NCBI GenBank assembly: GCA_944381075.1
Contig: CALWJT010000004.1
Coordinates: forward strand, 16,262-80,261
Source of the DNA: an uncultured Clostridia bacterium
Lineage (GTDB): Bacteria > Bacillota > Clostridia > Oscillospirales > CAG-272
Reading direction: 5' to 3'
DNA length: 64,000 nucleotides
Each line of letters opens with the position of its first letter. Position 1 is the stretch's first letter. Below, piece after piece: positions 3,600 to 37,255 of the stretch. Made by a program: the position numbers and the translations under genes. The notes beneath the pieces were generated by a model that was not told the origin of the DNA, searched no databases, and saw nothing but the letters and a program-made list of their open reading frames with translations.

Positions 3600-4727
3600 T
3601 CAAAAATCCACCACGTCGTCCCCGTCCAGCGCGGCAAGCCCGTAATGCAGCGCCGCCGCGGCAGTACGGCGCTCTTCCTCGCTTTCGCTTTCCAAAAGCG
3701 GGAGCAGCTCACGGAAAAACGCGCCGCGGATGGAAATATCGTTCTTCAGCGTTTCCGTATCCAGAAGCGGCGCAGTATCGTCCCGCACCTCGAGATAATA
3801 CAATCCGAGCGCACTCGCAGAAAGCACGTTCGGGGAGAGCCTTGCCTCCGGCGATATCCTGCCGGTAAGCTTGATGCGTACCAAGGCATCCGCACCGAGG
3901 CCTGCCTGCGCCGCAGACGTTTTGACGCGCTCCAGAAGCTCCGCATCTGACGATACACCCGTCACATCCACAGTCAGCCTCTCATAGTGTCTGCGGCACA
4001 TTCTGCGGCTTGCAAAGGATGCGGCAAGCCTCCCATTTTCCTTTTTGAACTCGCCGACGATCACGCCTTTGATCCCGCATTCGTCAAAGGAACGCCCTTC
4101 CGGACAGCCGCTGTAGGCATAGTAGGTATTGCCTGCAAGCTTGATCTCGCCTCCCTTATGGATGTGACCGAGCGCCGCATAATCAAAGCCGCATCTTGCA
4201 AGGTCCTGCGGGGAGATCGGACAGCAGTCCGATTTTCCGCCAAGGTCACAGTGTCCGGCAAACAAATTGATTTTTCTGCGGTCCAGGGAAGGCGCCGACG
4301 CCAAGGGATTTGACGGATGGGTCTCGGACAGATAGGCAAAGCCGTAAACATCGACACCGATCTCATCAAAAGAAATCTTGCCGAGCCCTTCTTCCTCAAA
4401 AATATAGACATTCGGAGGGAAAATTTCTTTCTTATAGGGACTGCGGGAAGAAATAAAATCATGATTTCCCGGCGCAATGACAAACCGGCATTCCGGCAGA
4501 GAATTGAATTGTGAGATCATTAAGGACGTCGTCTCCTTTGTCACAAAGCCGCTGTCAAACAGATCGCCCGACAGGAGAACAAGATCCGCCTTTTCCGTCT
4601 TGGCAAGCAGGATGATCGACGAAAAAGTGCCGCGCAGCTCGTTTTTGCGCACCTGCGCCTTCTGTACGTCGAAAAGGGAAAACGGCGCGTCCAAATGGAT
4701 GTCCGCGGTATGAATGATCTTCGGCAT
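3600..4727 (-). CDS. Metallophosphoesterase, SbcD/YhaO-like DNA repair exonuclease
   Basis: 375 aa. MPKIIHTADIHLD, GDLFD and GNHD calcineurin-like motifs. RBS GGAGGA upstream. Confidence 0.75.
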   Translation of the reverse strand: MPKIIHTADIHLDAPFSLFDVQKAQVRKNELRGTFSSIILLAKTEKADLVLLSGDLFDSGFVTKETTSLMISQFNSLPECRFVIAPGNHDFISSRSPYKKEIFPPNVYIFEEEGLGKISFDEIGVDVYGFAYLSETHPSNPLASAPSLDRRKINLFAGHCDLGGKSDCCPISPQDLARCGFDYAALGHIHKGGEIKLAGNTYYAYSGCPEGRSFDECGIKGVIVGEFKKENGRLAASFASRRMCRRHYERLTVDVTGVSSDAELLERVKTSAAQAGLGADALVRIKLTGRISPEARLSPNVLSASALGLYYLEVRDDTAPLLDTETLKNDISIRGAFFRELLPLLESESEEERRTAAAALHYGLAALDGDDVVDF

Positions 4728-4795
4728 GATTCCTCCTTCTGCATCTCATCGATACGGGCAAAAAACGTTTTTTTCCGGCATCTGAAATAGGCTGT

Positions 4796-7417
4796 TCATT
4801 CCGCAAGCTGATACTCGCCGGAACTCAGCTCGACAAAGAATTCCTTATCGTTTTCTCCGAATTTGCCGAGCAGATACGCCGGTCGGGAGCCCTCCTTCAG
4901 CAAGTTCATATGTTTCTTCGGCAGATACAGCGTCGCATGGCATCCAAAGGGGATCTTCAAATTGAGCGACAGCCTGCCGCCGCGGTTCGCCCAATAGCAG
5001 GCAACCTCGCCATACATCGAATCATGGGAAGCGGAGGCGCTCTCCATGCCGCAGTCCACGGCAGGACGCAGAATGGTGTGGCGGAAGCCCGGTTCCTTTT
5101 CATCAGGGGAGATCCCGCCTACATATTTATACAGGAAGGACGACAGATCAGAGAACATATGATGGTTGTGCGATCCGCCGCCGTTCCAGCATTCCCAAAG
5201 GGTCGTCGCGCCGAGATCGATCCATCTCTGACAGCCCGGGAACGTGCGCTGCGCAAGCATCCTGTGACCGACGTTGCCCTCTCCCATTGCGCCGAGCGTG
5301 TGCATGACGAATTTGCAGCCGAGCACGCCGAAATCCAGATGCCAGTCCTTTTCCTCGATCTGCTTGACAAGCCGGCGCAGCAGCGGCTCGCGCTCATCCT
5401 CCTCGCAAAGATCGAAATAAAGCATCACGGCGGTCGCCGTCTGACAGTCCCCTTTGACGGTATAGGTTTCTTTATCAAAGAATTTTTCCCGGAACGCCGT
5501 CTTGATCTTTTTTGCAAGGTCAAGGTAATACGCCTCATCCTCCGGCTTCTCGAAAAGACGTGCAAGCTTTACCACCGTCATCGCGGCATGATAGAAAAAG
5601 CCGGTATCCGAAACCTCGACGGGGCATTTATAAGCACCCATGTTTTTGCTGATCGCGGGACCCTCGAACGGCGCACACCAGTCGCCGGTACCGTAATTCA
5701 GGGTATAATCCACCGTCATGGATTCCATAAAATCACAGTTGCGCTTGATCGGCTCATAATTCAGACGCAGGATCTCCAAATCCGCGTTGTAAAGGTAGAT
5801 GTTGTACGGCACATTGATAAGCGCGCTCGACCAGTCCGGTCCCATCAGACCATAATATCCCCAGCCGGTGGACGGGACCACGCATGGGATCTGTCCTGCC
5901 GGGCGCTGTGATATGCGCATGTCGCGGCTCCACTTGGAAAGGAAGGCGCGCGTGCCGAAGTTTGTCAGCATCTGCTCCGAGGAAAGGGAAACATCGCCTG
6001 TCCAGCCGTTTTTCTCGCGGTGCGGACAGTCCGTCGGGATGGAATGCATATTGGAGATGGTTGCCCAGCGGCAAAGATGCTGCACCTTGCCGAGCAGCTC
6101 GTCGGAGCAGGAAAACCTCCCGATGTCCTCAACGTCCGTGCAGAGCGTATACGCGCAGACGTCGGAGAGCTGCGGCTCATAATCGATGCCGGACATTTCG
6201 ACATACTGGAAGCCGTGGTAGGTAAAGATCGCGTTCCACTCCTCTTCGCCGTCGCTTTTTTTGATATATTTGTCCGTTTGGAACTCACCGCTCCTAATAA
6301 AACAGCCGATGGAAGAAACATCGATCTCGCCATCCTCCGTCAGGACGTCGGAATACCGGAATTTGATTTCCGTACCGGCAGGTCCGCGCAGCTTGAAATG
6401 TCCGACGCCCGCCTGATTTTGTCCGATATCGAATACATAGCCGTCCGCGGACTTCCACATTTTTTTCGCGCCGATGATCTTGCGCACGCGGATCGGTTCC
6501 ATTTCCATGGCGACAAGAAGTCCGCCAGGACTTTTGATGATCTTTGTTTTGCCCCAATTGGTGTCGTCATAGTCCGGCATCGTCCAGTTTCCGAGCTCCA
6601 GTCTTGCGTCGTAAAATTCGCCGTTGCGGATGCCGTTGAATGTGATAGGTCCCTTGGAGGCCTTCCAGCTCGGATCCGAAAGGATCGTCTCCCGCCGTCC
6701 GTCCTCATACAAAATGTGCAGCTCCAGGATCCCCTTCGGAACATGCCGCCAGGTCGCCGCGCGCGTGTTCCACGGGTCCTCGGCAAAGCAGTTGTACCAG
6801 CCGTTGCCGAGGATCACACCGAGCGCATTTTCTCCCTCACGCAGGAGCGTGCGCACATCGTATACCAAATACATACATTCCGCATCATAGCGCGTAAAGG
6901 CCGGCGAGAGCATGTCGTTGCCGGTTTTCTTTCCGTTGAGATAGCTCTCAAAATATCCAAGTCCGCAGACGGCAAGATATGCGGCGCGCACGGCGCCGCG
7001 GACGGAAAAGATCTTTCTTAGATACTGCGCGCCGAGGAATTCCTCCTTTGTCCGCTTGAAATCGGCGGAAATCCATTTTCCGTCCCATTTCTTTCCAAGT
7101 TTTCCCGTAACAAAGCGGCAGTCCCCCGATGCCGTCTCTCCCGCTTCCGTTTCTATCTCAATATCCGCCCGATATTCCGTAAGGGGAGAAAGCGCTTCTC
7201 CTTCATACGGAATTAAGATTTGCCCATCCGTTTCCACCTTTCCGCTGTCCCAGACCATACGTTCCGTAAGAGCTTCCGTTACCCGGATCCTGCGCGCGCA
7301 TTGCCTGCCCCCTCTTGTATCGGAAGAGATTTTATAGGAGAATCTCGGATTTTCATCGATTCCGCACGGATTTTTCAAATAATTGACCGTACAGCCGTAT
7401 ATTTTGATTTCTGCCAT
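4796..7417 (-). CDS. Alpha-L-rhamnosidase (GH78)
   Basis: ORF 4796-7444 starts at a TTG; the first ATG is at 7417 (MAEIKIYGCTVNYLKNPCGIDENPRFSYK). Length and N-terminal signature are typical of bacterial GH78 enzymes. No signal peptide. Confidence 0.8.
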   Translation of the reverse strand: MAEIKIYGCTVNYLKNPCGIDENPRFSYKISSDTRGGRQCARRIRVTEALTERMVWDSGKVETDGQILIPYEGEALSPLTEYRADIEIETEAGETASGDCRFVTGKLGKKWDGKWISADFKRTKEEFLGAQYLRKIFSVRGAVRAAYLAVCGLGYFESYLNGKKTGNDMLSPAFTRYDAECMYLVYDVRTLLREGENALGVILGNGWYNCFAEDPWNTRAATWRHVPKGILELHILYEDGRRETILSDPSWKASKGPITFNGIRNGEFYDARLELGNWTMPDYDDTNWGKTKIIKSPGGLLVAMEMEPIRVRKIIGAKKMWKSADGYVFDIGQNQAGVGHFKLRGPAGTEIKFRYSDVLTEDGEIDVSSIGCFIRSGEFQTDKYIKKSDGEEEWNAIFTYHGFQYVEMSGIDYEPQLSDVCAYTLCTDVEDIGRFSCSDELLGKVQHLCRWATISNMHSIPTDCPHREKNGWTGDVSLSSEQMLTNFGTRAFLSKWSRDMRISQRPAGQIPCVVPSTGWGYYGLMGPDWSSALINVPYNIYLYNADLEILRLNYEPIKRNCDFMESMTVDYTLNYGTGDWCAPFEGPAISKNMGAYKCPVEVSDTGFFYHAAMTVVKLARLFEKPEDEAYYLDLAKKIKTAFREKFFDKETYTVKGDCQTATAVMLYFDLCEEDEREPLLRRLVKQIEEKDWHLDFGVLGCKFVMHTLGAMGEGNVGHRMLAQRTFPGCQRWIDLGATTLWECWNGGGSHNHHMFSDLSSFLYKYVGGISPDEKEPGFRHTILRPAVDCGMESASASHDSMYGEVACYWANRGGRLSLNLKIPFGCHATLYLPKKHMNLLKEGSRPAYLLGKFGENDKEFFVELSSGEYQLAE

Positions 7418-14987: not shown

Positions 14988-16916
<1,929 letters not shown>

Positions 16917-30509: not shown

Positions 30510-30540
30510 TGCGCGCCCGAATATCGGGCGCGCATTTTTC
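30510..30540 (+). terminator. pheST intrinsic terminator
   Basis: TGCGCGCCCGA-ata-TCGGGCGCGCA followed by TTTTTC. Confidence 0.7.
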
Positions 30541-30565: not shown

Positions 30566-30739
30566 CTGTGGAATGTTTCAGTTTTGTTACAAATCGGGAA
30601 GGTCCGTTGACAAAAAGCCGATGCCGGCGTATGATAATACCGGAAAGCCTGTGAAATCCGATGAAATCGTCTGTGAATGTTACAGTTATGTTACAAATCG
30701 AGAAAAGGACTTGCAATTTTTCCTCGGATGTAGTAGGAT
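30566..30739 (+). promoter_or_regulatory. Tandemly duplicated promoter module upstream of the SLH gene
   Basis: Two ~46-nt direct repeats (30566-30612, 30671-30716) each end in a -35 box. P1 is TTGACA-17-TATGAT (30607-30635); P2 is TTGCAA-17-TAGGAT (30711-30739). Confidence 0.6.
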
Positions 30740-30804
30740 AGTTACACTAAGTATGACTGGTGGAATCCTATTCGCCGGTTACTTAAATAATTAGGAGGAA
30801 TACT

Positions 30805-33800
30805 ATGAAGAACTTCAAGCGAATTCTTGCACTTGTGATCGCTGTCATTATGGTAGTGGGCACAACTGCAGGCTTGTCTGCTGCTGGCGGCAAGTGGTAC
30901 AGCAAAGCGGTTGCTTTTATTGAAAACAACAGCATTGCAATCATTGGCTCGCATGCAGATGACAAGCTGACCAGAAACGAATTCGTGCTTTGGGTTGCGA
31001 AACTCGAGTCTCACCAGCTGAGTGATGCTGCGTGGAACGACGAGATCGCCGGCACATCCTTCTCGGATGTAACGGAAGAGCATCACAGAGCCGCGATTGC
31101 GTATTCTGAAAGACGTGGCTTCATCATCGGAAACGGTGACGGAACCTTCAGCCCTGACAAATATGTCACGCTGGCTGAGGCTTGCGCGGTTATCGTTCGT
31201 CTGATGGGCTACGAGAACAAGGTGGACGATACGTCTGACGAAAACTGGAAGTACAATTACATGGAGGTTGCGAATACATATGCCCATGCGATTGACGAGG
31301 TTTTCCTCAAAGAGACGGATACGTACAATCCTGACTACGAGCTTTCGTATGGAGAAGCGGCTTACCTTCTCGCTACGATCATGAACTTCAACAAGACTCC
31401 CACGGATTCGGATTACTCCGAGACCTCCGACGGCATCAACCTCGGCGAATGGTTTGAGTTGAACGGCGGTTCTATGGGCACAGTCGGCAAGGCTTACTTG
31501 GTTTCTGATATCCATAGAGTAAGTTGGGGCGAATCCCTCTCTACGCTGGTTCACCTCGGCGGAAAGAAGGGCGAGATTTTCACCAACGAGCTGAATACGG
31601 CAGCAAGCGTTACGCTTCTTGCAGCGGATGGCTCCGGTGAAAGGCTGGTTATCGACGGAGAAGCTTTCCTGAAATTGCTCAGAGTTTCTCTTGGTCTGGA
31701 TCCTATCAGAGACATTGCAAATGAGGAAGCAGAAATCAACGTATTTGCTTACGCTGATATCGGTTCTCTTATTAACGTTGTCGTTGACAAGAGCGCTTCC
31801 GGACAAAACGCTACCTCCATTCCTGCTGCAGGAGGAGAGGGAAGCAGAGTTACGGTTACTTCCGTAAATCCTTCTGAAAATAGCGTTATTGTCGATACCT
31901 ATCTTCAGGCCACAAGCGCACAGCTGGGCACACCCTACGGTGATGGCTCTGTCGGCGCAACGTCCGAGACGAACCTGATTATTTCGGCGAATGATCTTTC
32001 CAAGTTTGTTGGCTGGACCATCCGCGAAATCGGTACGACGGAGAATACCGTTCCGGTTCTTCCTGCAACGTACGATGAATCTCTTGCTACCTCTTGGACG
32101 AACATCGTAAGAGATAAAGACGATGTCATTACCTCTGCGGTGCTGAACTTCAAGGGAGTCAGCTACAAGATCGATGGAACGAATAATGAGATCGACATCT
32201 ATATGGGTGATGACCTCACAACAGTTCTGACGCCTGATGAAGCGGTGAACAAAATCATCAACGCGGCACAGGGTGAGTGCTATGTCGTATTCAATGACAT
32301 TGACGGCGATGGAAAATATGACAATGCGGTTGTAAAGGAATCTGATCCGTTCTATTATATTGGTACGCCGAACGTACAGGGCGCTACTACAAACGCATAT
32401 GACTACTACTCTTCCATCAGCGGCGGCACCATTATCGGCAACGCTCAGATGAAGGGCAACAACCTCGGCGTCGTGATTTGGAACAAGAAGGTCGAATTTG
32501 CTGCGGGCGGTACCAGCGGAGTTGCTGACTATCGTACCGACGGTTATAAGCTTGTTGACAGCAATACCGGTAAGATGCAGCTCGTCCTAAGACCTTCTAA
32601 CAAGCACTTCTTTATTGATGGTGCTACAGCGGCTTACGGCAACGCTACTCCTCACTTCTATCAGGTGGTGGATCTTGCAACGTTTGGCGTAGGCGTGATT
32701 GAAGAGATTGACGCTTTCGCGCTTGACGATTACTTTATCGCAAAGATCGCGCAAACGGACGGTACGACCAAAACGGTCTATATCCCTGTCACTCCGAACG
32801 AGAAAACCACCTTTACGGTTTCGGTCGGCGGCGCTTCTGCGGAGTATGTCTTTGACAGCTCTACATGGTGCCAGTTCCTCACTGAGGACGTAAGAGAAGC
32901 TATCGTTGATAGCGGTATCGTTTCCGGCGTTCAGGATCCTGGATATAAGCAGGCGACGGCTGCTTGGATGGTAGGAAAGTATGTCCAGTTCGCGACCAAT
33001 GAAGACAACGAGGTCGTTGTTATTCTTGGTACGGACAGCACCACATCGACAAGCGGTTTTGTGACCGGTGTTCAGAAGACCGAAACGGGCGATAATACCT
33101 ACAATGTTTCGATCGCTACTTCTGGCTCTGGCACAGTTGAGAATGAAGCATATTATCTGGAAGCTGCGCTTCAGACTTCTGGAGCGAATGCAGGCAAGTA
33201 TGTTGTAACGACTCCTTGGGCTGCAATCGGTCAGGAATGGGGTGAGATTACGCAGTGGACCTATGATACGGTTCAGTGGGGCAAGCTCAATGTGTTCCGT
33301 GGCTGGACCAACTACTACGCTCATTATGGCATTAACGGCGCAAGATCACTTCTTTACAGCGATAACAACGGTACCCCGAACATGGGCGACGGTATTCATG
33401 CTGCGCTGAACGGCAACGATGGATATAACAAATGGACAGTAGGTACGGACGGTATTGTCCGTGATCAAGATGGAAAACAAGTTGCTTTCCAGAGAAAGAC
33501 AGAGGCTCGCTTTGGCGTAGGAGGCGTTTCGACCTATGAGGTCAGAGCTTCCGCATCCTCCATGTTCGACTGGGATAACTATGAGGTTTACAATGCGATC
33601 TTCGCAGGCAAACTGGGCGATCCCAATGGGATGAAAGACGGCAAGGTTAATCCGGGCGAAGACCTGATCTATGTTACGGTCATGCAGGATGCCGGTTCGC
33701 TGAAATACCTGAAATATGGCGACAATACCAATGGTTCCTCCAGCTTGCTGAGAAATGACCCGAGCAGTGGAATCAGAGAAGCATATTATACGTCTGGTAC

Positions 33801-36756
33801 GAGTAAACCTTTGTTTACAGTTATCGGTCAGGGCTATTCTGCTCCGACGGCTCATGAGTCTTGGCTTGATGTGGAAGGCGAATACATCATCAGCATCGAG
33901 GAGATCGAAGGCTCCAGAGTTACGGCTGACGACGGCAGCTCCTATACCGCTGAGTATACGGCTCTTGTCGGCTTCGGTCCGTATTATGTGAGAACCGCAA
34001 CGGCGAATGGCTATACCTATGTTCTCAGATTCACGAAGGTTGTGGAATATACCAGCGTTGATGGTACTGCGACCGCAGTGATCGACAAAGCCAAGACCCT
34101 TATGATCCCGCTTTACAAAGGTGAGAGCGGCACGCAGTCTGAGCAGGTTCAGGCTGTAACAGATGAGGACTTCGAGAAGTACACGATTGCCAATGGTTAC
34201 TACATTGATGACATTACCCATCTCGTTTATCTGCTTGTAGAAGACGCGGAAATCGTCTTTGAAAAGGATGATCAGGGCAACATCATTTATTCCGATGTTG
34301 TTTATGACTGGGAGAGCGGTAAGGCTGCCAATACGTACACCGATGGCAAGGAAGTTCTCTTTGACACCTATGATATCGACAGATATACCACCTTCTCCGC
34401 TACCGCGAAGTCCAGCACCGATGAGGGCTATTTCCCGGGTGCGATGTATGTCAACCTCGATGGAAAGACCTATCAGGCTGTCAACACGATGCCTGTCATC
34501 ATCGTAACGCCTTCTGCGGACGGCTTTGAAATCACCACGACCACCCTTGCCAACATTCCTTCCGAGGGACTCTTTGCGACGACCTGGAACGGTGTTGAGA
34601 GCAATGGCTCGCTTGTCGCGATCGCTATCATCGGTGACGTGACCGGCTCTGATGAGGTTGTGGTTCCGGCGGATGATACGACGCTTGTTTACCTGGATTC
34701 TTCTGCGAAGGCGATCGTCAGAGCAGGCGAGTTCTCGGCTAACTGGATTGTCGTTTCTGACAAACCTGCTTATGCGCTTCCTTCCGGCGAGGAAATCGGT
34801 GTTATCTATCGTGAGTACTCCACCTATGAGGATGCGAAGAAAGCAGCTTCTATCGATCTGACTGTCGTTGGCGGTCACTGGTATAAAGTAGATGAAAACG
34901 GCAAGATCATCTCCGATATGACCAATGTGGTTTATGAGGAGTTTGACGGTGTTGTCATCGATACCAATGATTATACGATGACGGAAGGCAATATCTATTC
35001 TCAGTCCTTCTATCTTGTGGACGGCGAATACAGAATTGCAAATCTCCAGTACACGAACGGCGTTTTGACCGGTATTACGGCTGGCGATGCGTTCGTACCG
35101 ACTGTTGATGTCAGCAGCCTGTCTGCTACGAATTATCTGATTCCGGCAACCGGCGTTGAGATCTATCAGAGAGCGAACGGCGATACCTTCTACAAGAATG
35201 CAAGCGGACAGTATGTTCTTGTTACGATTGGTGAAAACAATACGTTGACAGACGGTGCTGCTATTGATGTTTACAATCTTGTTTACGGCATCAATAACGC
35301 ATCGAATGTAGACGATTACAGAGACACCTATCTTGTTGAAGATGAGGCTACACAGCAGGTGATCTACACCTATGCTGGCGCAACTGGTTTGATTTACTTC
35401 ATTGAGGATGCTGCGAATGCGGGTACTTACTATCAGGTCAACCTGACAGAAACAGCGGAAGCTGGTACAGTGCTTGTCGAGGTAACGGATACAGAAGTGG
35501 ATCCGGCAGATTACGAATCTTTCAAGATTTCGTATGATACCTATAATGTCATCACAGTGAAGGAAGTCATTGTTTATACCTATGGCGGCATCTCCTTCAT
35601 CGATGCAACTCCGGATGTATACAACGATTCGAACTATGTTCAGGTCACTGTAACCCCGATCGAGGGTGCGGCTGAGGGTGCTCCGAACGCTGTTATCACA
35701 GAAGGCGCTGCGGTCACGATGGATGCCATCGTTGCAGGACTTGAGCCTGTTCAGACGATTGATGAGCCTGCTACCAAGACGGTAACGGTATATGAATACT
35801 ATGGTGAACTGTATGTGCTCGCTTCTGGTACGGCTGGCGAAGAGGGTGCAACCTATACGCAGGTAGAGGAAGTGACCTTCACTTACGGTGATAAGTCCTA
35901 TACGTACCTGAAAGAGGTTGGTCCTTGGACCGAATCTACACCGGATGATACGACAAAGAACCATACGGTAACGGTGATTGGTTCTACGGAATCGATTACG
36001 GTCTACACAGAGCAGGTCCGCAAGGATGCGAACGGCGCTTACGCCTTCACAACGACCGATGGTACTGCGATCAGCGGTGCTCCGGCAATCGTTTATAACA
36101 TTGCAGACTTCTCGCTCGTAAGCGGCAATGCTGTCAACGGCGCTTACACGAACGGAACGGCTTATGTCATCGTTGTCGACGGCGAGTACTATCCGGCGGA
36201 TAGCAACTACCGCAGGATCGAGACCTCGTCTGTATTGTCCGGCTTGAAGCAGGGAACGATCACGAAGGCAGATGCAGCCGGCAACACTTGGGCGACGATC
36301 GACGGCATTGAGAATGTCAATGTTACCAATTACAAGTTTGAGTTCTTCTACAGAAATGCTGACGGCACCGTCCTTTACAAGGCTGGCGATTCTACGAATG
36401 TAACAGTTGCAAGCAGAGCAATCTATGAGGCTCAGATCAAGACTCAGCAGGATGCTTATGACAAGGCTGTTGCAGCGTATGAGGAAGCTCTTTCTAAGGA
36501 CTATCTCAGCGAAGAGAGACTCGCGTACTATAAAGAAGAAGTTGAGAGAACAGAGGCTGAATTGCTTGAAGCAAAGGATTCTCTGCTTGACAAGTACTTC
36601 AACGGCAGATTCTGGAACGTTCCGAACTCTCCGTACTATACTTATGTACAGCTCGGTCAGGGTTCCTTCCAGCAGCCGACCTCCAGCCTGACATTCACGT
36701 ATGTTCTGGTTGGCGATACGTACTGCGTATTCTCCGATGAGTTTGTCCTCGGTTAA
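30805..36756 (+). CDS. Giant SLH-domain cell-surface protein (candidate S-layer protein)
   Basis: 1983 aa. Signal peptide, three N-terminal SLH-like repeats (e.g. FSDVTEEHHRAAIAYSERRGFIIGNGDGTFSPDKYVTLAEA), a long T/V/Y/D/G-rich region with almost no Cys, and a C-terminal coiled coil. Perfect RBS TAGGAGGAA. Confidence 0.85.
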   Translation: MKNFKRILALVIAVIMVVGTTAGLSAAGGKWYSKAVAFIENNSIAIIGSHADDKLTRNEFVLWVAKLESHQLSDAAWNDEIAGTSFSDVTEEHHRAAIAYSERRGFIIGNGDGTFSPDKYVTLAEACAVIVRLMGYENKVDDTSDENWKYNYMEVANTYAHAIDEVFLKETDTYNPDYELSYGEAAYLLATIMNFNKTPTDSDYSETSDGINLGEWFELNGGSMGTVGKAYLVSDIHRVSWGESLSTLVHLGGKKGEIFTNELNTAASVTLLAADGSGERLVIDGEAFLKLLRVSLGLDPIRDIANEEAEINVFAYADIGSLINVVVDKSASGQNATSIPAAGGEGSRVTVTSVNPSENSVIVDTYLQATSAQLGTPYGDGSVGATSETNLIISANDLSKFVGWTIREIGTTENTVPVLPATYDESLATSWTNIVRDKDDVITSAVLNFKGVSYKIDGTNNEIDIYMGDDLTTVLTPDEAVNKIINAAQGECYVVFNDIDGDGKYDNAVVKESDPFYYIGTPNVQGATTNAYDYYSSISGGTIIGNAQMKGNNLGVVIWNKKVEFAAGGTSGVADYRTDGYKLVDSNTGKMQLVLRPSNKHFFIDGATAAYGNATPHFYQVVDLATFGVGVIEEIDAFALDDYFIAKIAQTDGTTKTVYIPVTPNEKTTFTVSVGGASAEYVFDSSTWCQFLTEDVREAIVDSGIVSGVQDPGYKQATAAWMVGKYVQFATNEDNEVVVILGTDSTTSTSGFVTGVQKTETGDNTYNVSIATSGSGTVENEAYYLEAALQTSGANAGKYVVTTPWAAIGQEWGEITQWTYDTVQWGKLNVFRGWTNYYAHYGINGARSLLYSDNNGTPNMGDGIHAALNGNDGYNKWTVGTDGIVRDQDGKQVAFQRKTEARFGVGGVSTYEVRASASSMFDWDNYEVYNAIFAGKLGDPNGMKDGKVNPGEDLIYVTVMQDAGSLKYLKYGDNTNGSSSLLRNDPSSGIREAYYTSGTSKPLFTVIGQGYSAPTAHESWLDVEGEYIISIEEIEGSRVTADDGSSYTAEYTALVGFGPYYVRTATANGYTYVLRFTKVVEYTSVDGTATAVIDKAKTLMIPLYKGESGTQSEQVQAVTDEDFEKYTIANGYYIDDITHLVYLLVEDAEIVFEKDDQGNIIYSDVVYDWESGKAANTYTDGKEVLFDTYDIDRYTTFSATAKSSTDEGYFPGAMYVNLDGKTYQAVNTMPVIIVTPSADGFEITTTTLANIPSEGLFATTWNGVESNGSLVAIAIIGDVTGSDEVVVPADDTTLVYLDSSAKAIVRAGEFSANWIVVSDKPAYALPSGEEIGVIYREYSTYEDAKKAASIDLTVVGGHWYKVDENGKIISDMTNVVYEEFDGVVIDTNDYTMTEGNIYSQSFYLVDGEYRIANLQYTNGVLTGITAGDAFVPTVDVSSLSATNYLIPATGVEIYQRANGDTFYKNASGQYVLVTIGENNTLTDGAAIDVYNLVYGINNASNVDDYRDTYLVEDEATQQVIYTYAGATGLIYFIEDAANAGTYYQVNLTETAEAGTVLVEVTDTEVDPADYESFKISYDTYNVITVKEVIVYTYGGISFIDATPDVYNDSNYVQVTVTPIEGAAEGAPNAVITEGAAVTMDAIVAGLEPVQTIDEPATKTVTVYEYYGELYVLASGTAGEEGATYTQVEEVTFTYGDKSYTYLKEVGPWTESTPDDTTKNHTVTVIGSTESITVYTEQVRKDANGAYAFTTTDGTAISGAPAIVYNIADFSLVSGNAVNGAYTNGTAYVIVVDGEYYPADSNYRRIETSSVLSGLKQGTITKADAAGNTWATIDGIENVNVTNYKFEFFYRNADGTVLYKAGDSTNVTVASRAIYEAQIKTQQDAYDKAVAAYEEALSKDYLSEERLAYYKEEVERTEAELLEAKDSLLDKYFNGRFWNVPNSPYYTYVQLGQGSFQQPTSSLTFTYVLVGDTYCVFSDEFVLG

Positions 36757-36783
36757 TTTGTAGTATTTTCCTAATTACGATAA

Positions 36784-36820
36784 AGAGATGGCTCCCTTTT
36801 GGGAGTCATCTCTTTTTTTC
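36784..36820. terminator. Bidirectional terminator shared by the SLH gene and the convergent small gene
   Basis: 13-bp stem AGAGATGGCTCCC / GGGAGTCATCTCT (one G-U pair) followed by TTTTTT. The stem overlaps the minus-strand stop codon at 36806-36808. Confidence 0.75.
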
Positions 36821-37255
36821 GTCTGTTTTTCTTTTTTTCGCGATGAGGGCAACGATCATGATAAGAATCAAAAGTCCGGCGATGACGGCCAGAATCCAGC
36901 TCCAAGCCGTAGAGTCGCTCTCGCTTTCACTGCCGCCGGTTCCTGCTGTCGTTGCTGCGCTTGAACCGTCGCCGTTATTGGTAGCGGAAATCTCTCCGGA
37001 GCTTCCGCTGCCGCCCGTTCCGCTGCTGACGCTGCCCGTTCCGTTTCCGGCGCCGCTATTGATATCGTTGCCGGTGTTTCCGCTTCCGTCAACGCTTCCG
37101 TTCCCGTTGGAGTCCCCATTCGGCGGTGCCGCGATGTCGTTGCTTCGGGTGTCTGCAAAAACAGCCATCCCGCTGGAAAACTGGGCAAACATCAAAAGTG
37201 CGATAAAAAAGACAGACAGAACAGAAAATAAAAAATCCCTTTTTGATTTTTTCAT
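36806..37255 (-). CDS. Secreted low-complexity G/S/N-rich protein with C-terminal TM anchor
   Basis: 149 aa. Signal peptide (cleavage near AVFA/DT), ~90 aa of G/S/N/T/D repeats, then WILAVIAGLLILIMIVALIA followed by KKRKTDEKKR. Confidence 0.5.
   Translation of the reverse strand: MKKSKRDFLFSVLSVFFIALLMFAQFSSGMAVFADTRSNDIAAPPNGDSNGNGSVDGSGNTGNDINSGAGNGTGSVSSGTGGSGSSGEISATNNGDGSSAATTAGTGGSESESDSTAWSWILAVIAGLLILIMIVALIAKKRKTDEKKR

Follow-up and report, generated by a model that had tools for sequence, protein, structure and literature searches.

The 64,000-nucleotide stretch analysed in this study (hereafter the window; positions 16,262 to 80,261 of the forward strand of contig CALWJT010000004.1, GenBank assembly GCA_944381075.1) belongs to an uncultured Clostridia bacterium of the GTDB lineage Oscillospirales; CAG-272, and carries at window positions 30805-36756 (plus strand) a gene for a very large candidate surface-layer (S-layer) protein with an N-terminal SLH anchor. 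The open reading frame (ORF) begins with ATG and encodes 1983 amino acids (aa), equivalent to a 215-kDa precursor and a 212-kDa mature protein with an isoelectric point (pI) of 4.2. Both the ORF and a composition rich in T, V, A, G, D and Y had been described in an earlier sequence-only reading of the window and are confirmed here, while the count of three Cys given at that time is corrected to four (0.2% Cys); the protein also contains 20 Met.

The gene is preceded by the terminator of pheT (30510-30534) and followed by an intrinsic terminator of its own (36782-36815, plus strand), and is therefore monocistronic. Between the pheT terminator and the start codon lies a duplicated promoter module (30566-30739, plus strand) composed of promoters P1 and P2, in which one unit, consisting of a conserved ATGTTnCAGTTnTGTTACAAA element, a -35 box, 17 nt and a -10 box, is present twice. 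P1 (30607-30635, plus strand; TTGACA-17-TATGAT), identified by promoter scan, agrees with the consensus at 11/12 positions, whereas P2 (30711-30739, plus strand; TTGCAA-17-TAGGAT), read directly from the sequence, agrees at only 8/12 positions in this strain. Of the two strong promoters proposed earlier, one is thus near consensus and the other is weaker, although its position is conserved in relatives. Both promoter modules and the ribosome-binding site align with the regions upstream of homologues from two other species, on contigs L001 (59% protein identity) and L002 (41%), where the module copies lie at about 4690-4860 and about 5700-5930, respectively. The conservation of the whole duplicated module suggests a conserved regulator-binding site, itself a direct repeat of TGTTACA. 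The ribosome-binding site is a perfect AGGAGG (30793-30798, plus strand) located 6 nt ahead of the ATG, and the stretch TTAGGAGGAATACTA in this region is identical in L001 and L002. Like the ribosome-binding site, the strong terminator previously noted stands, with a 15-bp stem followed by a T-run. The terminator region is common to the SLH gene and a convergent 149-aa ORF (36806-37255, minus strand), which belongs to no Pfam family and has a gene call at the identical position in three contigs of the same species.

The N-terminus of the protein has a signal peptide (30805-30882, plus strand; aa 1-26) that is visible in the translation as MKNFKR, a hydrophobic core and LSAA, with cleavage predicted before the following GG, and the residues at its N-terminus hardly vary across the family. 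The SLH domain trimer follows at 30892-31404 (plus strand; aa ~30-200), with the motifs TRNE (aa 56-59), TLAE (aa 122-125) and SYGE (aa 181-184). The SLH family of Pfam (PF00395) matches aa 85-127 with 32.8 bits against a cut-off of 20.8 (34.7 bits in the whole-genome scan). In Foldseek comparisons, the AlphaFold2 model of aa ~30-200 superposes on solved SLH trimers with a probability of 1.00, target-normalised TM-scores (TMt) of 0.59-0.72 and 153-187 aligned columns. The structures matched are those of Bacillus anthracis Sap (6bt4, 3pyw) and Paenibacillus alvei SpaA (7sv4, 6cwc and others), which were solved with pyruvylated ligands. R57 shows no variation within the family, in which E125 and E184 are each conserved to at least 90%.

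The structure of the protein was predicted in two overlapping AlphaFold2 models built from alignments of 63 family members, covering aa 1-1150 (mean predicted local distance difference test score, pLDDT, of 77; predicted TM-score of 0.61; many blocks above 90) and aa 1051-1983 (mean pLDDT of 83). The ~1780 residues past aa 200 are predicted to be almost wholly beta-strand. This passenger region had been described as having no recognisable domain, and the searches made here agree. A Pfam scan of the whole protein (E <= 1) returned nothing other than SLH and a sub-threshold TPR match, NCBIfam returned only noise, PHROGs gave no match, and sequence searches of the PDB with the single protein and with the 63-sequence family profile found only weak matches to the SLH region of Sap; no adhesin or enzyme domain appeared. 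Foldseek searches against the PDB (both models) and against BFVD (N-terminal model) likewise found only SLH, although whole-chain models were used as queries, so that matches to single domains may escape. Rows for DDB1, sialidase and propeller structures in these searches were rejected as noise (root-mean-square deviation of about 25-40 A, TM-scores < 0.1, probability <= 0.35).

The body can be divided into an N-proximal beta-rich region (31405-33174, plus strand; aa ~201-790), mostly modelled with high confidence and with no real PDB match, and a conserved beta-rich core (33922-35124, plus strand; aa ~1040-1440; pLDDT around 80) that is common to all distant family members and highly identical in all close homologues. 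The matches in the representative protein library cover query positions 118-590, corresponding to aa 901-1373. Within the N-proximal region, the nearly invariant motif FNDIDGDGKYD (32287-32322, plus strand; aa 495-506) is of the DxDxDG type and may be a Ca2+-binding site; conservation in the family reaches at least 90% at D498, D500, D502, G503 and D506. The absence of internal repeats proposed by the sequence-only reading holds at the level of BLASTP, which found none when the protein was compared with itself, but not at that of a profile self-comparison with hhalign, which detected a weak, diverged repeat of ~110-aa beta units (aa 1457-1664 versus 1567-1735; E 0.0018, probability 15%). This repeat (window positions 35173-36009) falls inside a strain-variable insert that is absent from shorter homologues.

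The protein ends in a C-terminal module (36226-36753, plus strand; aa ~1808-1983) that is conserved in all family members and is made up of beta strands, a hairpin of two helices and, with CVFSDEFVLG as its last residues, a terminal beta unit. The hairpin (36415-36597, plus strand; aa 1871-1931) is modelled as antiparallel helices at aa ~1871-1897 and 1903-1931, and shows a weak Foldseek likeness to the hairpin of MexA (probability 0.69). The coiled coil previously placed at the end of the protein therefore corresponds to a real helical region, predicted as an intramolecular hairpin, but it is not the end of the chain: the ~52 residues that follow are among the best-conserved stretches of the family. 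The module also occurs outside this architecture. In the representative library, two proteins of other organisms, P0115 (407 aa) and P0116 (306 aa), consist of a lipoprotein signal peptide, a Thr/Glu-rich linker and the C-terminal module alone. In a genome of another genus of the same GTDB family, a separate 365-aa ORF (G005:C11:24330-24809) matches only aa 1808-1980 (39% identity); that genome also has a 1932-aa homologue of its own, and the module has thus been duplicated there as a small protein. No paralogue of the module was found in the genome to which the window belongs.

Comparison of the window at the nucleotide level with three contigs from other samples (L012, L013 and L014) revealed a mosaic within the gene. 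All three contigs are 98-100% identical to the window over ~5 kb on either side of the gene and therefore represent the same species, yet inside the gene identity falls in three blocks to 48-70%. In cassette A (approximately 31500-33000, plus strand), L012 and L014 are 48-66% identical to the window and L013 is 99-100% identical; in cassette B (about 33000-33900, plus strand; aa ~733-1032), L013 and L014 are 48-71% identical and L012 is 90-98% identical; and in cassette C (about 35125-36009, plus strand; aa ~1441-1735), an insert, identity to all three contigs is 62-85%. The combination of blocks differs between contigs, L013 matching the window in A but not in B and L012 the reverse. Given the near-identical flanks, these differing combinations indicate that the three blocks are deeply divergent alleles that are shuffled by homologous recombination between strains of one species. 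Similar contrasts are seen among the encoded proteins. In close homologues, windows of 40 residues are either about 100% or only 17-50% identical, with amino acid identity in cassette B falling to 17-30%; this cassette is also the site of the two low-confidence stretches of the structural model (aa 808-875 and 976-1024, pLDDT < 50). Cassette C is absent from homologues of 1530-1560 aa, and shorter homologues cover 39-70% of the query. A mosaic of this kind is the pattern that would be expected of exposed surfaces under phage or immune selection.

Relative to the genome mean, codon usage in the gene is shifted towards AGA, GCT, GGT, GTT, TCT and CCT and away from CGG, CGC, GCC and GGG, and the most similar deviations are those of EF-Tu, rpsB, rpoA, pgk and several lipoprotein genes. 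The codon shift claimed earlier is therefore real for AGA, GCT, GGT and GTT, but not for ACT, which is not favoured (relative synonymous codon usage, RSCU, of 0.45 versus a genome mean of 0.37). An expression axis was defined, without involving the SLH gene, as the pooled RSCU of 12 translation genes (nine confirmed by Pfam and one more confirmed more weakly) minus the genome mean. When the 815 genes of at least 300 aa were projected on this axis, the SLH gene ranked first, with a value of 3.93 compared to 3.71 for tuf and 2.07 for the 99th percentile, and a cosine of 0.77. For AGA, TCT, CCT and GCT, usage rises in the series genome < pool < tuf <= SLH gene; for GGT and GTT the same series holds within 0.13, with tuf marginally higher than the SLH gene. 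The deviation thus lies along the genome's own expression axis, as an exaggeration of that bias, in agreement with the earlier suggestion of high expression. A principal component analysis of codon usage yielded no useful information, and shadow ORFs within the crude ORF set are the probable reason. Together with the conserved duplicated promoter, the consensus ribosome-binding site and the strong terminator, the top-ranking codon bias argues for very high expression, for which codon usage serves here as a proxy.

Expression-type codon bias is shared by two other large secreted proteins, of 1445 aa (G000:C5:14732-19069, minus strand) and 768 aa (G000:C45:27284-29590, plus strand), each with one Listeria-Bacteroides Flg_new repeat, and by several lipoproteins, among them G000:C11:72922-74523 (plus strand) and C11:70105-71220 (plus strand). 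These proteins rank just below EF-Tu on the expression axis and are probably further abundant surface proteins.

The gene has been retained at its locus over considerable protein divergence. The order pheS-pheT-gene recurs in an uncultured Clostridiales of the human gut, UMGS461 (59% identity), and in a metagenome-assembled genome from roe-deer rectum (41%), and a homologue with 31% identity lies directly after rny, which is also found nearby in the window; altogether, the same locus holds an orthologue in relatives at 72%, 59%, 41% and 31% identity. The family is otherwise narrowly distributed. A match was found in 26 of the 151 sampled genomes of the GTDB family, and the body or C-terminal module, beyond SLH, is detectable in only five of its 97 sampled genera. 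A search with aa 784-1983 against 1.84 billion representative proteins recovered only 31 relatives, all of them large proteins of the same kind or fragments. SLH domains themselves are widespread, occurring in 115 of the 151 genomes, some with dozens of hits; the genus of the window has only four SLH domain hits, from two proteins.

Several features of the genome (2.0 Mb, 93.6% complete) bear on the cell envelope in which this protein would be placed. A search found no Omp85, which was detected in the control genomes, and the organism is therefore monoderm. The genome encodes two SLH proteins only, the 1983-aa protein and a protein of 224 aa (G000:C46:7367-8041, minus strand; equivalent to L007:2367-3041), the latter consisting of little beyond three good SLH modules (78 bits) and adjoining a gene with a NERD domain; as a guess, it could be a small protein bound to the wall, or it could compete for the polymer. 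The check for csaB and related genes proposed with the earlier reading was positive. There is a single polysaccharide pyruvyl transferase (PS_pyruv_trans, 113.8 bits; G000:C9:21092-23320, plus strand; equivalent to L009:9092-11320), a 742-aa protein with an N-terminal GT4 glycosyltransferase fusion whose gene lies just upstream of one for a DUF11 surface protein. In Bacillus and Paenibacillus, CsaB is an enzyme that stands alone. Single copies were also found of a TagA/WecG N-acetylmannosamine (ManNAc) transferase homologue (202 bits) and of an MnaA-type UDP-N-acetylglucosamine 2-epimerase (Epimerase_2, 355 bits). These assignments concern gene presence, and control genomes that lack SLH also have the three families. 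In P. alvei, a set of this CsaB/TagA/MnaA type is used to make the pyruvylated ManNAc to which SLH domains bind (PMC6030368).

Taken together, these observations are best explained if the 1983-aa protein is the major SLH-anchored surface protein of a monoderm gut Clostridia, most likely an S-layer subunit, a reading to which a probability of roughly 0.6 is assigned and in which both the lattice and the abundance of the protein are inferred. S-layer proteins typically have a pI of 4-6, few sulfur-containing amino acids and masses of 40-170 kDa (PMC4232325, Sleytr et al. 2014). The protein resembles them in its acidic pI, in its 4 Cys and 20 Met, in being the single dominant SLH protein, and in the high expression expected of it from its control signals and codon usage, and the lack of recognisable functional domains fits the same general picture. 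Under this model, the Sec signal peptide would export the protein, after which the predicted SLH trimer would bind non-covalently to a secondary cell-wall polymer containing pyruvylated ManNAc, a ligand suggested by the CsaB-type, TagA/WecG and MnaA genes. The acidic, nearly Cys-free, all-beta body of ~1780 residues would then project outward and tile the surface, possibly with Ca2+ bound at the DxDxDG site, while the conserved core (taken here as aa ~900-1440) and the C-terminal helical-hairpin module would be the likely surfaces of assembly or contact and the three variable blocks would face outward. Production from a monocistronic gene with a dual promoter would be expected to be very high.

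A number of observations weigh against this interpretation. Although three SLH modules had been proposed, SLH modules 1 and 3 fall below the Pfam threshold, which only one of the three passes, and the Arg of the TRAE-type motif is kept in the first module only; the superposition on the SLH trimers of Sap and SpaA nevertheless supports the three-module assignment at the level of the fold, with two modules too diverged for the hidden Markov model. The classical codon adaptation index of the gene, computed against translation genes, is an unremarkable 0.705 (rank 232 of 1556, 85th percentile), equal to those of pheS and pheT, because the Ala and Gly codons used most often by the reference genes are not those whose share grows with expression. 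GC content at third codon positions is 0.55 compared to a median of 0.65 (10th percentile), which taken alone would also agree with another origin. The mature protein, with its 212 kDa, is heavier than the range of 40-170 kDa, which is typical of S-layer proteins and not a strict criterion. In addition, the pyruvyl transferase is a fusion protein and its gene is not adjacent to the SLH gene, and it may therefore serve another glycan.

There are several potential explanations other than an S-layer. It is conceivable, though rather doubtful, that the protein is an SLH-anchored large adhesin, fibril or loose coat that binds host mucus, dietary particles or other cells and is abundant without being crystalline. 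The size of the protein beyond that of typical S-layer proteins and its codon adaptation index at only the 85th percentile are in keeping with such a role, as is a multi-domain beta architecture with strain-variable inserts, which is seen in many adhesins, and the occurrence of the C-terminal module on lipoproteins elsewhere suggests a generic interaction module. However, no adhesin-type repeat or domain (Ig-like, Big, Cna-B, LRR or Flg_new) was found in the protein, whereas other secreted proteins of the genome do carry Flg_new, and the top projection on the expression axis, the status of the protein as the only large SLH protein in the genome and its conserved core locus all speak against this reading. 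Markedly less probable is an SLH-anchored enzyme or glycan-binding protein, for example one that degrades or captures polysaccharides through domains too divergent to be recognised. Glycoside hydrolases and binding proteins are numerous among the SLH proteins of gut and rumen Clostridia, some genomes of the same GTDB family contain dozens of SLH domain hits, and sialidase and propeller structures appear in weak all-beta Foldseek alignments; these alignments, however, are the ones rejected above as noise, no Pfam, NCBIfam or PDB sequence match was obtained even with the family profile, and the free replacement of large blocks between strains makes a catalytic core unlikely.

The sequence-only reading had also raised foreign origin as an alternative cause of the codon shift, in which case the gene would be a recent import whose codon usage reflects a donor and not expression. 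The GC content of the gene (about 49-50% versus 53% for the genome), its low GC3 and the lack of relatives beyond a narrow family of 31 representative clusters (out of 1.84 billion) could be taken as signs of such a history. They are outweighed by the orthologues kept at the same locus in relatives (pheS-pheT-gene, with rny nearby), by synteny and a promoter module conserved at 59% and 41% protein identity, by near-identical flanks within the species, by a codon deviation collinear with that of EF-Tu and ribosomal proteins, and by the fact that cassettes are exchanged within the species and not from afar. Foreign origin is therefore rejected as largely refuted, with very little probability left to it.

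If the protein is indeed an S-layer subunit, a broader and more tentative proposal can be considered, namely that it represents a new S-layer family of uncultured gut Clostridia with subunits that, at 212 kDa for the mature form, rank among the largest single-chain ones of the SLH type and are built from folds that have no solved relative, that the three cassettes are exposed epitopes and phage receptors driving the diversification of gut strains, and that the C-terminal module, common with lipoproteins elsewhere, is a new assembly or docking domain; as a whole, this proposal is possible but not favoured. The unusual features of the protein are its size, a passenger region of unmatched fold, the C-terminal module shared with lipoproteins and the intraspecific cassette mosaic. 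No concept is changed by these findings, since S-layers with an SLH anchor are well known, and so are S-layer genes with variable alleles. To our knowledge, however, the S-layers of uncultured gut commensals are almost unstudied, and a literature search for gut SLH S-layers found nothing specific. The outermost protein of a bacterium decides phage adsorption, antibody (immunoglobulin A) recognition and contact with the host, and the locus provides a concrete candidate for the main surface antigen of one uncultured gut lineage. It is also a clean natural example of intraspecific cassette exchange, with identical flanks and inner blocks falling to 48% nucleotide identity, and it offers about 1800 residues of confidently predicted beta structure without a known relative. 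The conserved dual promoter could serve for strong expression in these organisms.

Two other known kinds of SLH protein do not correspond to the one described here. The OmpM-type SLH porins of diderm Firmicutes, which call for BAM machinery and a C-terminal beta-barrel, find no counterpart, with no Omp85 in the genome and no porin match in Pfam and Foldseek, and no cohesin, a trait of cellulosome scaffoldins, was found in the protein by the same two methods. The S-layer proteins Sap and EA1 of B. anthracis and SpaA of P. alvei are similar in having a signal peptide followed by an N-terminal domain of three SLH modules and an acidic, Cys-poor, multi-domain beta body, and the P. alvei ligand pathway has its counterpart in the CsaB-type, TagA-type and MnaA-type genes of this genome. 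Sap and EA1 have about 800-860 aa and SpaA about 980 aa, so that the window protein is about twice as large, and nothing in its passenger region resembles their assembly domains in sequence or fold. Differences from Sap and SpaA also extend to the anchor, with one SLH module at the Pfam threshold here, and to the fusion of the pyruvyl transferase to GT4.

The mosaic invites comparison with a different system, SlpA of Clostridioides difficile, a far smaller protein that is processed into two subunits. The anchor of SlpA consists of CWB2 repeats, of which a Pfam scan (E <= 1) found none in the window protein, which is anchored instead by SLH, and the variation described here resides in three independently assorting intragenic blocks and not in one cassette. 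What the two have in common is a major surface gene with deeply divergent, recombining alleles between near-identical flanks. In C. difficile the product of slpA acts as a general receptor for phages (PMC10100898), and the S-layer cassettes of that gene are the closest known parallel to the mosaic observed in this study.

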